From Alphaproteobacteria bacterium (GTDB lineage: Bacteria > Pseudomonadota > Alphaproteobacteria > Rs-D84), in assembly GCA_017471445.1 (NCBI GenBank), contig JAFUTJ010000008.1, positions 1-46,381 of the forward strand: a DNA stretch of 46,381 bases, read 5' to 3'. The notes beneath the pieces are model-generated. The model was not told the DNA's origin. It worked only from the letters and a program-made list of their open reading frames with translations, and made no database searches. The translations under genes were made by a program, and so were the position numbers. This document shows, in pieces, positions 1 through 41,494 of the stretch. The stretch's first letter is position 1, and the number at the start of each line of letters is the position of its first letter.

Positions 1-105
1 CCACCGTTTTTTTGTGCACGGGTAAAGGAAAATAAAATGGCGGATTTCTGGGGTTTTGTAAAAACAATTTGTGCACCAAAAAAACGGTGGTTTTTTGGTG
101 CACGG
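1..105. mobile_element. Putative invertible translation-start cassette, copy 1 (left site cut by window edge)
   Basis: Core CCACCG at 1-6 and inverted core CGGTGG at 85-90, 78 bp apart; + strand AAAGGA RBS and ATG at 37 reading MADFWGFVKTICAPKKRWFFGAR; near-identical to 22664-22768 and 41339-41443; target gene would lie left of the window. Confidence 0.75.
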
Positions 106-127: not shown

Positions 128-156
128 ATTATACCGCATTCACGCGTTTTTGGCAA
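128..156 (-). promoter_or_regulatory. sigma70-like promoter upstream of cassette copy 1
   Basis: Minus strand TTGCCA-17 bp-TATAAT. Confidence 0.8.
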
Positions 157-21937: not shown

Positions 21938-22669
21938 CTAATTCACCGGGAACAATTTGCCGCCATCACCGCGTTTTGCACTAATCCAACACGTCGCGCC
22001 ATTACGCGGAACGGCCATGGCGTATTTAGTATGCTTTTCCGCATATATATTTATACCATTCATTGCCGTGTCGCCAATCCGACACAATGGCAAACACCGG
22101 TCGTCGGATGTGTGGCCGAATCCATCATCACATTCCCACGGGCAATCGCCAACATCCGGTGTGCCCGCACCGGTATAGTGCGCATTTGTCGGCGCATTTG
22201 TGCATGGATTTACGTTTTTATAATTCGTGGTACCAGGCTTGTTCAGATTTGATACGTAGTAACCAGTTTGTGCAGCAGAACACAGACCGTTATAGTTTAC
22301 AACCGTATAATCTGATGATTCCATGGAATAGCCTAACACAATATACCTATCCGCGCATGTATCATCTTGCGCCTGACGTACACGCAGACCACACGCCATT
22401 ATTGATGTTGGGCCAACAGAAGCGTATGTTGATGTTTTTTTCAACATATTGTAATCTGAAATATTCGGTATCAAATTCAGAACATCCGACTTGGTCAAAT
22501 TGGTTTCTGGACATTCATAACTTAAATCATCCCCCGGACAGTAATATGACGAGATACAATTTGTACATTCACCATTGTTCATGTATTGCCCCGCGTCGCA
22601 TGTTGCGGCGCGGGCATTGGTTAAAATGCACATGCCAAACATCACACCCCATGCACAAAAAAACCACCG
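21938..22669 (-). CDS. Secreted Cys-rich variable protein, paralog B; start codon supplied only by inverted cassette (259 aa when ON)
   Basis: Fixed part begins RWFFCAWGVMFGMCILTNARA-ATC; YCPGDD; conserved C-terminus; no RBS+start facing the gene in this orientation. Confidence 0.85.
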   Translation of the reverse strand, partial: RWFFCAWGVMFGMCILTNARAATCDAGQYMNNGECTNCISSYYCPGDDLSYECPETNLTKSDVLNLIPNISDYNMLKKTSTYASVGPTSIMACGLRVRQAQDDTCADRYIVLGYSMESSDYTVVNYNGLCSAAQTGYYVSNLNKPGTTNYKNVNPCTNAPTNAHYTGAGTPDVGDCPWECDDGFGHTSDDRCLPLCRIGDTAMNGINIYAEKHTKYAMAVPRNGATCWISAKRGDGGKLFPVN

Positions 22670-22768
22670 TTTTTTTGTGCACAGGTAAAGGAAAATAAAA
22701 TGGCGGATTTCTGGGGTTTTGTAAAAACAATTTGTGCACCAAAAAAACGGTGGTTTTTTGGTGCACGG
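22652..22768. mobile_element. Putative invertible translation-start cassette, copy 2 (OFF orientation)
   Basis: Left site TGCACAAAAAAA-CCACCG-TTTTTTTGTGCA (perfect 12-6-12 palindrome, 22652-22681); right site 22734-22766 with inverted core; RBS+ATG at 22700 on + strand. Confidence 0.8.
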
Positions 22769-22790
22769 CTTATTTCCCTGTACGCCATAT

Positions 22791-22819
22791 ATCATACCGC
22801 ATTCACGCATTTTTGACAA
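22791..22819 (-). promoter_or_regulatory. sigma70-like promoter upstream of cassette copy 2
   Basis: Minus strand TTGTCA-17 bp-TATGAT. Confidence 0.8.
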
Positions 22820-22857
22820 TATGTTTTTTGATAAAAAAACATTACATAAACATATTG

Positions 22858-23199
22858 TTATATTGCGCCACGACACCAATGGATGTGCCAACCACATACA
22901 ATTATCACATCAAAACGCGCATTTCCGCGCCACTGTGTTTTTGCAATATACGTTTCAGCCGCACGACGCAGGCGCACAATTTGCGCGGGTGTAATTGCAT
23001 CCCATGCGGCGGCAACGGTTGGGCGTGCCTTTACCTCTATAAACACCAGGGTATTTTTATTCCGTGCAATAATATCAATTTCGGCACGGGCCGTTTGGCG
23101 GCCGGTTACGTATCGCCGCCGCACTATGCGAAACCCATGCATGCGCAGCATCCACACCGCGCGCCATTCTGCCAATAAACCGGTTTTATATGAATTCAT
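22858..23199 (-). CDS. yraN: YraN family (UPF0102) protein
   Basis: GLLAE, EIDIIAR, LVFIEVKAR, RFDVI. Confidence 0.9.
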   Translation of the reverse strand: MNSYKTGLLAEWRAVWMLRMHGFRIVRRRYVTGRQTARAEIDIIARNKNTLVFIEVKARPTVAAAWDAITPAQIVRLRRAAETYIAKTQWRGNARFDVIIVCGWHIHWCRGAI

Positions 23200-23200
23200 A

Positions 23201-23983
23201 TTAAAATGCATAATTCTTGGCGCGGAAATTTTCACGTGCCGCCTGGACATTTTTGGCCGCATCCGACGCGTTGCGCCCATTGTCCACCAAATCCAGTGCA
23301 CCATAATACGCCGTCATCATCGGATCATATGAATTATTTGATGACACCCACGTATCACCACCTGCGTTTGGTGCGCCATATTTATCCAATACATCTTGCC
23401 AAAACTTTAATATCTTTTTTTCGCGCTGGTTAGAAAATTTGTCGGCATCCCCTTCTAAATCATTAACATCGTTATTGTAAACAACGCGCCACACAACATT
23501 ATCGGTTGCATTACTGGTAAAATAAACCGTTATTGTTTCACCCGTGGCAGCCCGTTCAAGGTGCAATTGCGACGCATACAGCAACCCACGATTACGCGCC
23601 AAACTGGTTATGCATTTTTCCAATTCAGACGGGTTATACGCCTGTTGCTGGCGACATTCATAGTCCAGGTTGTATTTCCATTCTTGGGCAATGGTGTATA
23701 TTATGCTGTCTTTCTTGCGCGGCGCATACAGGCCACCATTATGAAAAAACAGTGTATGAATATCGTCAAACCCCATCCCCAGCATTATTCCCGCAATATC
23801 AAACGCCCCAACATTCGCAGGTGTGGCCCCGACATCCATCGCAACCGAACCAACCGTAACATCGTTATCATCACTGTCCGTTATTGCAAAGTTATTCAGG
23901 TCAAACGGGTCATCGTCTGCGCGCGCGCAAATTGCGCCACCGCATAACATCAAAACCGATAAAAATTTCAATTTCATATTCAT
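23201..23983 (-). CDS. Exported hypothetical protein
   Basis: Signal peptide ending CARA, 260 aa, co-transcribed with upstream VirB8-like genes. Confidence 0.75.
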   Translation of the reverse strand: MNMKLKFLSVLMLCGGAICARADDDPFDLNNFAITDSDDNDVTVGSVAMDVGATPANVGAFDIAGIMLGMGFDDIHTLFFHNGGLYAPRKKDSIIYTIAQEWKYNLDYECRQQQAYNPSELEKCITSLARNRGLLYASQLHLERAATGETITVYFTSNATDNVVWRVVYNNDVNDLEGDADKFSNQREKKILKFWQDVLDKYGAPNAGGDTWVSSNNSYDPMMTAYYGALDLVDNGRNASDAAKNVQAARENFRAKNYAF

Positions 23984-36625: not shown

Positions 36626-36898
36626 ATGAACAAACAACAATTGATTGAAGCAATCGCAAACGAAGTTGATGTTACCAAGGCAACTGCTGGTGCGTGCTTG
36701 GATGCATTCATCAACACCGTAACAAAAGTTCTGAAAAAGAAAGGCGAAGTTCGCTTGGTTGGTTTCGGCACATTCACATCTGCAAAGCGCAAGGCAACAA
36801 CCGGCCGCAATCCGCAGACAGGTGCAGCAATTAAAATCCCTGCATCAACCCAGCCGAAATTCAAACCGGGCAAAGCATTGAAAGATGCATTGAACTAA
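36626..36898 (+). CDS. hup: DNA-binding protein HU
   Basis: MNKQQLIEAIA, LVGFGTF, GRNPQTG, PKFKPGKALKD. Confidence 0.97.
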   Translation: MNKQQLIEAIANEVDVTKATAGACLDAFINTVTKVLKKKGEVRLVGFGTFTSAKRKATTGRNPQTGAAIKIPASTQPKFKPGKALKDALN

Positions 36899-40573: not shown

Positions 40574-41344
40574 CTAATTCACCGGAACTAATTTCCCGCC
40601 GATGTCGCGTATGGCACTAATCCAACACATACCATCGCCGCGTGGAACGGCCATGGCATATTTTGTGTGCTTTTCGGCGTATATATTTATACCGTTCATT
40701 GCGGTTTCACCAATCCGGCACAGCGGCAAACACCGGTCGTCGGATGTGTGACCGAATCCATCATCGCATTCCCACGGGCAATCGTTCGCGTTCTTAATCG
40801 TACCATCCGGGCTGTCCGGTGTGCCGGGACCGGTATAGTGCGCGTTTGCCGGTGCGTTGGTGCATGGCTTTACGCCATTGTACCAAACCTTATACGTGGT
40901 ACCCATATATGGCGACAGATAATAACCGGTTCCCGCCGCATAATAGTGTGTGCATTTAACGGGGTATTCTTGGCTGGTTGGGTCGTATGCAACCTCTGAC
41001 AGGCAACTATAATTCTTAGTATAAAAATATGCACTGCGATGACAACAGGTTATCCTGTCACGCTCGTAATACGTTGTGCCATTATATACAAATTGCGTCC
41101 GCCAAGAATTGATCCATACTTCGCCGACTGTAAAAGTATCATCAAAAAACTGTTCATATTTTCCCGCCCATTTATCTTCGGGACATTCGTATTGTGCGTC
41201 ATCGCCCGGACAATAAGATGTTTTGCCGCAATATGTACATTCGTTTTTAGAATTCAGATAAAAATTTGCCGGACAATTTGCGGCATGGGCATTGGTTAAA
41301 ATGCACATGCCAAACACCACACCCCGTGCACCAAAAAACCACCG
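40574..41344 (-). CDS. Secreted Cys-rich variable protein, paralog C; start codon supplied only by inverted cassette (272 aa when ON)
   Basis: Fixed part begins RWFFGARGVVFGMCILTNAHA-ANC; YCPGDD; conserved C-terminus. Confidence 0.85.
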   Translation of the reverse strand, partial: RWFFGARGVVFGMCILTNAHAANCPANFYLNSKNECTYCGKTSYCPGDDAQYECPEDKWAGKYEQFFDDTFTVGEVWINSWRTQFVYNGTTYYERDRITCCHRSAYFYTKNYSCLSEVAYDPTSQEYPVKCTHYYAAGTGYYLSPYMGTTYKVWYNGVKPCTNAPANAHYTGPGTPDSPDGTIKNANDCPWECDDGFGHTSDDRCLPLCRIGETAMNGINIYAEKHTKYAMAVPRGDGMCWISAIRDIGGKLVPVN

Positions 41345-41443
41345 TTTTTTTGTGCACGGATAAAGGAAAATAAAATGGCGGATTTCTGGGGTTTTGTAAA
41401 AACAATTTGTGCACCAAAAAAACGGTGGTTTTTTGGTGCACGG
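41324..41443. mobile_element. Putative invertible translation-start cassette, copy 3 (OFF orientation)
   Basis: Perfect 29-bp inverted repeat 41324-41352 / 41415-41443; RBS AAAGGA and ATG at 41375 on + strand. Confidence 0.82.
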
Positions 41444-41465: not shown

Positions 41466-41494
41466 ATTGTAACATGTTCGGCGATTTTTTTCAA
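41466..41494 (-). promoter_or_regulatory. sigma70-like promoter upstream of cassette copy 3
   Basis: Minus strand TTGAAA-17 bp-TACAAT with extended -10 TG. Confidence 0.8.

Follow-up and report, generated by a model that had tools for sequence, protein, structure and literature searches.

A start-codon cassette between opposed palindromic sites, probably inverted in trans by an Mpi-family serine recombinase, in a genome-reduced alphaproteobacterium

The window analysed here spans 46,381 bases from the start of contig C19 in an alphaproteobacterial genome assembly (G000; 910,822 bases in 23 contigs, C1, C2 and so on, 88% complete), whose nearest named relatives are Candidatus Enterousia genomes, a group known from metagenomes only. 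At 22651-22766 it contains a short cassette bounded by two palindromes, next to the gene body of a cysteine-rich secreted protein. The first-pass annotation had read the palindromes as tyrosine-recombinase sites, arranged for inversion and flipped at all copies by an enzyme acting in trans. The features of the locus are as follows.

21938..22660, minus strand: gene body of the cysteine-rich secreted protein; the signal-peptide h-region and an NARA/A cleavage motif follow the site, and its own Shine-Dalgarno (SD) sequence and start codon are absent in the present orientation
22651..22682, no strand: putative gene-proximal recombination site, ATGCAC-A7-CCACCG-T7-GTGCAC; core 22664-22669, dyad 22666/22667
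22683..22733, plus strand: putative invertible interior, directed away from the gene (OFF); SD AAAGGAAAA at 22687-22695, ATG at 22700-22702
22702..22716, no strand: central motif GGCGGATTTCTGGGG, a quasi-palindrome at the exact cassette midpoint, kept across species
22734..22766, no strand: putative promoter-proximal recombination site, GTGCAC-C-A7-CGGTGG-T6-G-GTGCAC; core 22748-22753, dyad 22750/22751
22791..22819, minus strand: fixed sigma-70-like promoter, TTGTCA-17-TATGAT, matching 10/12 consensus positions; outside the invertible segment and aimed through the cassette at the gene

An inverted-repeat search gave the left end as TGCACAAAAAAACCACCGTTTTTTTGTGCA (22652-22681), with 13-nt arms that are 100% complementary and 4 nt between them, and the right end as GTGCACCAAAAAAACGGTGGTTTTTTGGTGCAC (22734-22766), an imperfect palindrome (82%). 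Compared with one another, the ends form an inverted repeat of 29 nt (93% complementary). Their cores, CCACCG and CGGTGG, are reverse complements that point opposite ways, with 84 bp from dyad to dyad. Palindromic ends with opposed asymmetric cores, as described in the first-pass annotation, were thus confirmed, as was the double use of one site as coding sequence: read on the minus strand, the gene-proximal site supplies the gene's residues C T K K R W F F C A, which include, in the gene's own frame, the KKRWFF named earlier. The 13-6-13 layout is present at both sites, and such an arm-spacer-arm arrangement is not exclusive to tyrosine recombinases. An identity among Rfam families was rejected, the two microRNA-hairpin matches to the inverted repeat scoring 33-36 bits, far below the gathering scores of 101-120.

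The 19-mer A7-CGGTGG-T6 occurs five times in the window, against 0.15 expected, a number reached in 0/100 shuffles, and these occurrences define three cassettes. The other two, with their flanks, are listed here.

1..103, no strand: cassette copy 1, OFF-type by its right flank; the contig start cuts the left core; ATG at 37, right site 71-103
128..156, minus strand: fixed promoter of copy 1, TTGCCA-17-TATAAT, identified by eye only
40574..41335, minus strand: gene body under copy 3, a cysteine-rich paralog of the same family as the window protein
41326..41441, no strand: cassette copy 3, OFF orientation; cores 41339-41344 and 41423-41428, 84 bp apart; ATG at 41375
41466..41494, minus strand: fixed promoter of copy 3, TTGAAA-17-TACAAT with upstream TG, matching 10/12 consensus positions

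A scan of the 0.91-Mb genome found the core pair at ~23 places. To call orientation, 21 main-type interiors were aligned by their internal ATG. Four were ON-type (C1:43416, C2:1825, C15:3338 and C15:20745): the frame set by the ATG crosses the right-hand site and continues as a signal peptide within a long open reading frame (ORF), of 324 and 273 amino acids (aa) where no contig end cuts it. The other 17 were OFF-type, with the ATG facing a conserved non-coding promoter flank and the gene lying behind the cassette on the other strand; 11 of these had both flanks assembled and six were cut by a contig end, and all three window copies belong to this group. Both states were present in both gene subfamilies, as distinguished by signal peptides containing WGVMFGMCILTNA and WGVVCGIGAANAELPENVKF. 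Since both orientations occur, and do so in both subfamilies, these alignments indicate that the segment has inverted repeatedly relative to fixed flanks. We infer ongoing switching from orientations that differ among paralogous loci only.

The reading frame of the cassette was tightly conserved. The distance from ATG to core was exactly 48 nt, in frame, in 19/19 complete copies, and two interior versions, VKTICAPKKRWFF and VKNNLCTKKRWFF, differ through compensating single-base indels by which the frame is kept. Recombination geometry could be an alternative cause of the fixed length. In the three 83-bp copies, however, the deletion was placed upstream of the SD. The gene bodies behind OFF copies were intact ORFs of 214-319 codons.

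The same type of site flanks three kinds of interior in this genome. Identical palindromes stand 95 bp apart (84 + 11) at C10:3506-3601 and C18:18092-18187, around a different interior that by eye carries a promoter, TTGGAA-17-TAAAAT. A third interior type, at C21:26883-26968 and also recognised by eye, is in ON orientation, with a strong SD (AAAGGAG) and an ATG 48 nt before the core, in frame with the signal peptide. Its gene-side core is CGGTCA instead of CGGTGG, a variant that may be locked or may be tolerated by a serine enzyme. With modular ends and exchangeable cargo, the palindromes therefore resemble recombination sites. On both sides of the 95-bp copy on C10 is a signal-peptide gene with an SD and an ATG of its own; the two genes diverge, and the copy looks like a toggle able to drive either of them.

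Cassettes coincide with breaks in the assembly. Six contigs are cut within a cassette (C11, C12, C13, C18 and C19 start in one and C16 ends in one), and several further contig ends are at most a few hundred bases away from one. Repeats, possibly in mixed orientations, break assemblies, and the cassette copy number is therefore a lower bound. The first-pass annotation had raised the possibility that identical cores allow rearrangement between loci. No product of such exchange was seen among the 15 main-type copies with both flanks assembled, each of which has one gene and one promoter flank; the six contig ends inside cassettes could hide some.

In the main-type cassette the promoter lies outside the invertible segment, unlike a classical invertible promoter, and an internal promoter was found only in the 95-bp variants on C10 and C18. 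A flip would therefore mainly switch the translation start. The segment holds the SD, the ATG and 16 codons, and the codons after the ATG, MADFWGFVKTICAP, continue into the right-hand site. The SD is similar to those ahead of groEL, ftsH, alaS and other genes of the window. With the cassette in OFF orientation, AAATTGTTTT comes after the promoter-proximal palindrome, and this arrangement was scored as terminator-like for both the window copy and copy 3, so that the OFF-state palindrome with its T-rich tail may terminate transcription as well. When the transcript was folded, the two ends paired into one long stem in either orientation, with the interior as its loop (predicted −58.9 kcal/mol, z −3.65 for OFF; −65.3 kcal/mol, z −5.57 for ON).

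A search with the cassette DNA by BLAST in 40 relatives returned just a 24-nt motif match, in 12 genomes. The species-specific element first suggested by this result was overturned by a covariance model, described below. A homologous system was found, via a paralog of the window protein, in a second species (G045, 95% complete), where there are ~28 promoter-plus-cassette copies. The layout there comprises a fixed promoter (ending in CTTGTCAAAAATCGTGCAAACGGGTATAAT) whose sequence differs from that in G000, a 36-bp palindromic left site, a 49-50-bp interior and a right site that contains the signal-peptide ATG (M P K K T V G F...). Among 12 analysable cassettes, eight were oriented one way and four the other, so both orientations relative to fixed flanks occur in two species, in support of the earlier suggestion that the ends act as inversion sites. 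The ON orientation in G045 would be the state that, by eye, has a G-rich SD and a start codon, TTG or GTG, that shares its frame with the ATG further downstream.

At six further loci of G045 (L057, L058, L060, L062, L064 and L068), the left inner arm is replaced by a sequence containing GAGCGGTC and the inverted repeat is largely lost. Their interiors appeared forward-type by eye, and the motif test flagged just two of them as forward. These loci are possibly decayed, locked switches.

Nine cassettes of G000 and twelve of G045 were aligned from dyad to dyad, and the alignment formed the basis of covariance model R1. A centre of AACCACC...GGTGGTT was common to G000 and to class C of G045; the arm GCA/TGC was invariant, and the central motif was shared. 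The repeat arms co-vary, with two-sided changes across site classes in 11 of the 16 arm pairs. R1 found full-length cassettes in 38/96 other genomes of the genus, and in 35/72 when only high-quality genomes were considered (G000 included in the count). Among genomes drawn from the order, cassettes were found in 32/63 genomes of the genus compared with 0/37 genomes from 18 other genera.

The best cassette from each of 24 further species was then compared. All share the centre AAAC-N4-GTTT, with N4 being GGTG (7), GGTC (5), GTCG (5), GTTG (3), CACC (2), GTCC (1) or GACC (1). Match lengths were 93-96 nt, which places the dyads ~83-86 bp apart. A motif resembling CCCGGATTTCTGC lay within 1.5 nt of the midpoint in 24/24. 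This motif is flanked by 42 + 42 nt in the window cassette, 42 + 43 nt in G045 and 42 + 53 nt in the 95-bp variant. A promoter or a sigma-54 site at this position was rejected by eye, the spacing being wrong and either orientation relative to the SD occurring. We propose instead that the motif is a site for an architectural or accessory protein. Three HU/IHF-family genes are present in G000. A related motif, AAAAATGGCGGATTTCTGCGGTTTTT, was seen at L014 (G017:C3, two copies 310 bp apart), L015, L016 and L018, where flanking inverted repeats were not seen. One of these loci has tandem 310-bp units; they may be degenerate cassettes or reflect another use of the motif.

Sequence differences between partner sites were exploited to locate the crossover. 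In G000, mapping from arm polymorphisms was uninformative because all four arms are alike. In G045, identity between partner sites, read outward from the shared inner arm, ended 1 nt past the left-site dyad in 7/12 cassettes, at +3 in 1/12 and at +6 in 4/12. The dyad was set by the symmetry of the 36-bp left site and its AAAC/GTTT flanks, and its position is uncertain by ~1 nt. Within the +1 group are class-A cassettes whose site pairs are identical and whose orientations differ (L053, L054 and L055 versus L063 and L066). Identity also ended 0-1 nt past the dyad in the best cassette of 9/24 other species, a comparison of sites alone. The central dinucleotide was non-palindromic in 24/24 of these cassettes (GT, TC, TT or AC), and in G045 the central 2 bp were identical between partner sites even where adjacent bases differed.

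These limits bear on the class of enzyme. Tyrosine recombinases require an overlap region of 6-8 bp that matches between partner sites. An identical 6-bp overlap is present in the window copies (CGGTGG) and absent from seven of the 12 G045 homologs, and the site layout as such fits both recombinase classes equally well. With identity ending at +1 in those seven, the 6-8-bp overlap of a tyrosine enzyme is unavailable, whereas the 2-bp crossover of a serine enzyme is available. The enzyme is thus more likely to be a serine invertase encoded elsewhere than a tyrosine recombinase.

Six-frame profile searches of the genome gave no match to PF00589, PF00239 or PF01548 in window positions 1-46381, in agreement with the first-pass annotation, which had seen no recombinase ORF in the 46 kb. 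The nearest recombinase gene begins at contig position 74,879. Elsewhere G000 encodes XerD-like and XerC-like proteins (C3 and C17), a 406-aa phage-type integrase (C19:85042-86262) and two large serine recombinases; a recombinase of IS110/Piv type was considered and none was found. Four full-length small serine recombinases of 198-241 aa, together with fragments, matched PF00239 and NF009949, the master DNA invertase Mpi family. The invertase at C6:63411-64136 scored 298.5 bits with NF009949, above the cut-off of 272, and the other three full-length copies scored 224-266, below it. The closest solved relative of the C6 invertase is Gin invertase (4m6f, E 4.6e-12), with which the GY(I/V)RVST catalytic serine motif and the GRP arm align. 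No accessory gene was obvious next to it. In G045 the Mpi family is represented by a single gene, alongside two large serine recombinases, an Xer pair and one integrase of 365 aa plus a fragment.

Listing recombinases and correlating them with the cassette across relatives was the check put forward in the first-pass annotation. Across the 96 genomes of the genus, cassettes were found in 32/35 genomes with a C6-type ortholog (at least 72% identity) and in 6/61 without one (Fisher p 4.5e-16). When only high-quality genomes were counted, the numbers were 29/31 and 6/41 (Fisher p 6.5e-12). The phage-type integrase, at 45% identity or more, was not associated, with cassettes in 5/17 genomes that have it and 33/79 that lack it (Fisher p 0.42), and the 406-aa integrase had no match in G045. 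The C6-type invertase thus tracks cassette presence and the only non-Xer tyrosine integrase does not, which argues against the tyrosine class first proposed. Cassette-positive and cassette-negative genomes were interleaved at all GroEL distances. On a groEL DNA tree of G000 and 29 of the 96 genomes, the minimum number of changes was seven for cassette state and nine for ortholog state. The records of the closest invertase orthologs are animal-gut metagenome-assembled genomes titled Alphaproteobacteria or Candidatus Enterousia.

Taken together, the palindromic ends are very probably the paired recombination sites of an inversion switch. Given a switch, an Mpi-family serine enzyme is the probable agent. 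The complete account, an invertible 84-bp start-codon cassette flipped by a trans-acting and most likely Mpi-family invertase, is the one that we favour on balance. The fixed promoter in the non-gene flank would transcribe through the cassette, which would bring the SD, the ATG and the first 16 codons, with the crossover site among codons of the signal peptide's KKR n-region. In the ON state the ATG would join the signal-peptide codons in frame, allowing the cysteine-rich secreted protein to be made; in the OFF state the gene would be left without a ribosome-binding site or start codon. With no linked recombinase and ~23 dispersed copies, a trans-acting enzyme is the sole economical reading, and this part of the first-pass annotation gained support. 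A recombinase encoded elsewhere would then flip all copies, the likeliest candidate being the C6:63411-64136 invertase, which would cut at the central 2 bp (G/T) of AAAC-GGTG-GTTT. The conserved mid-loop motif may bind a bending or accessory protein.

A more specific model can be offered tentatively, as one that we would not yet bet on. The cassette would be a miniature, helically phased invertasome, in which sites for invertase dimers lie exactly eight helical turns apart (nine in the promoter-carrying variant) and a bending or accessory protein is brought in by the palindromic motif at the apex, combined with a portable start cassette that has spread over surface genes. If this were true, the ~84 bp flipped by a serine invertase may be the smallest programmed invertible segment. 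It would also mean that a translation-start cassette has spread to 20-40 surface-protein genes per genome within one genus of uncultured, genome-reduced gut alphaproteobacteria, giving combinatorial surface variation with roughly one switch per 40 kb.

Several observations weigh against a serine-invertase switch. The sites span ~32-36 bp, compared with 26 bp for hix in the accessible text of PMC3798978, and an 84-bp loop is very tight. A Fis-type HTH_8 domain had no match in the 88%-complete G000, and no cis enhancer was identified. Both species, G000 and G045, also encode XerC-like and XerD-like proteins. The genomes of the genus are kin, so the Fisher values overstate the association. Among six independent pairs on the groEL tree that differ in the ortholog, the cassette followed the ortholog in ~2.9, went against it in 0 and did not differ in ~3.1; a sign test on the six pairs, which has too little power, gave a median p of 0.25. 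Three genomes have the C6-type ortholog and no cassette match, and six have cassettes without an ortholog at 72% identity or more (66% in G006, no match in G056 and G101). As R1 was built from the cassettes of G000 and G045 and applied with strict filters, the cassette-negative genomes may include misses. Four gut-metagenome runs from one study contain the locus, but their short contigs end at 22594 and 22779 and none bridges the cassette. The repeat region in these runs reached ~35-40 times the summed depth of the unique flanks, a ratio that is not a copy number.

The earlier proposal of a tyrosine recombinase acting in trans, in which the housekeeping XerC/XerD pair or another integrase would exchange strands where the 6-bp core CGGTGG borders its 13-bp arms, is unlikely, but it draws on real features. 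The 13-6-13 geometry is genuine, partner sites in the window genome are identical in the 6-bp core and in both arms, and a span of ~32-36 bp is nearer to sites of lox or FRT type than to the 26-bp hix. Xer-like genes and the 406-aa integrase are encoded in the genome. Xer-like enzymes drive the inversion of mycoplasma surface genes, and Cre works down to a spacing of roughly 80 bp. A 6-bp core is nevertheless difficult to reconcile with the seven of 12 G045 cassettes whose partners differ from the second base past the dyad, class A doing so in both orientations, or with the same short identity in 9/24 other species. The integrase, moreover, has close homologs in 17/96 genomes with no cassette association, and it is the Mpi-type ortholog that tracks cassette presence. 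Xer enzymes are probably near-universal in the genus; if so, they cannot explain cassettes in only 38/96 genomes. XerC/XerD could still conceivably be the enzyme.

Two further explanations dispense with a dedicated recombinase or with switching altogether. Close inverted repeats are prone to template-switch inversions, and the segment might have been turned by RecA-dependent recombination or replication template-switching between the 30-bp repeats, with the palindromes acting mainly as RNA hairpins or terminators. The long transcript stem that pairs both ends and the terminator-like palindrome with its T-rich tail in OFF orientation would suit this explanation. It is very improbable when set against the conserved AAAC-N4-GTTT centre, half-site arms that are recognisable even where partners differ, the central motif at the midpoint and the tie between cassette presence and one invertase ortholog. 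The dyad spacing of ~83-86 bp is also kept across species, the sole longer form (95 bp) adding one more helical turn, and partner identity in G045 is just 19 bp, short for homologous recombination. Still more remote is a scheme with no present switch, in which ancient events fixed the ON and OFF loci as variants among the paralogs and the palindromes serve as operators for a DNA-binding regulator. Its appeal comes from the 17/21 copies in one orientation and from heterogeneity at read level not having been shown, as contigs break at the repeat. Against it stand the occurrence of both states within both gene subfamilies and in another species with different site sequences, the intact OFF gene bodies, the frame from the cassette ATG kept in 19/19 and the co-variation of the repeat arms.

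DNA inversion switches and global invertases are already well known, and the closest parallel to a trans-acting serine invertase is Mpi. Well-studied switches are roughly 135-320 bp or more in size, and those of Bacteroides are about twice the size of the segment here. In the accessible text of PMC4747536, Mpi of Bacteroides fragilis is described as one serine recombinase that inverts 13 regions, including seven polysaccharide promoters, and the accessible part of PMC9881135 reports Mpi-family genes to be enriched beside predicted programmed inversions. The system described here is alike in that a small serine recombinase is encoded apart from many distant targets, and the candidate belongs to the same NF009949 family. 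It differs in that the promoter is fixed, the flipped segment brings the SD and start codon, and the site lies inside signal-peptide codons; the host is also a reduced-genome alphaproteobacterium, with ~23 copies in 0.91 Mb.

The Hin/hix and Gin/gix systems share with the cassette small serine invertases (Gin being the closest solved structure), palindromes that bind dimers, a non-palindromic central 2 bp and inverted sites. According to the available portion of PMC3798978, Hin inverts a segment of ~1 kb bounded by 26-bp sites, the reaction depends on a cis enhancer occupied by Fis, and the Hin invertasome includes a tight loop of ~100 bp aided by HU. Here, by contrast, the whole segment is 84 bp, the sites are ~32-36 bp, a Fis-type gene was not found in G000 and the invertase gene lies outside the segment. 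A further difference is the conserved central motif, which sits where an enhancer might be.

Clostridioides difficile cwpV offers a different likeness. Transcription there starts upstream of the switch and orientation acts after initiation; the OFF state here likewise forms a terminator-like hairpin with a T-rich tail. The cwpV switch is inverted by the tyrosine recombinase RecV and is not known to work other than by termination, whereas the main effect here would be an SD and start codon that are fused in frame or absent. Sites in or beside the 5′ coding region of surface-protein genes are shared with Mycoplasma vsa/vpma, with partial intergenic invertons and with shufflons. Systems of the vsa/vpma type shuffle alternative gene bodies onto one expression site via tyrosine recombinases, whereas here each gene has its own promoter and a private ON/OFF mini-cassette. 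Invertons that partly overlap genes are a recognised class (PMC10028968, accessible text).

In the limited texts covered, we found no 84-bp SD/start-codon switch behind a fixed promoter with a crossover in signal-peptide codons, which is not proof of absence, and no report of inversions in Enterousia. The accessible part of the Enterousia paper PMC12306168 describes reduced metabolism, and the words inversion, recombinase and surface are absent from that part. The 84-bp unit, a site that doubles as signal-peptide codons, a fixed external promoter and a flipping start codon would extend the known features of invertons, and the same features would make a very compact modular genetic switch. The window protein has 50 matches in the G000 genome; with ~23 switches and these 50 family matches in 0.9 Mb given over to variable secreted proteins, the organism is probably under strong pressure from host immunity or phage, which would offer a first clue to how it lives.

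A cluster of recombinase genes lies at C19:74,879-101,375, 28-55 kb past the window end, and looks like one or more integrated mobile elements. Besides the phage-type integrase noted above, it includes the following.

C19:74879-75499: Mpi-family paralog
C19:87343-88407: 354-aa large serine recombinase
C19:100754-101375: split Mpi-family gene

One of the three HU/IHF-family genes lies within the window itself.

36626..36895, plus strand: HU/IHF-family gene, no more than a candidate for a DNA-bending helper of the kind that an 84-bp loop would probably require

The products of the cassette-associated genes are cysteine-rich, with an AXA-type signal-peptide cleavage motif, and none of the three paralogs tested matched a Pfam family at E 0.001 or better. 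The gene frame of OFF copies extends backwards through the inverted cassette without a stop for 16-86 codons. At the window copy this open frame (22660-22897) extends to an ATG overlapping the −10 box, so that a 319-aa ORF spans 21938-22897 on the minus strand. Such openness is probably a by-product of the palindromic A/T runs; it could conceivably provide an alternative N-terminus from read-through transcripts. A UPF0102/YraN-family gene, with a nuclease-like fold (PF02021, E 1.4e-19), adjoins the promoter flank at 22858-23304 on the minus strand, probably by coincidence.

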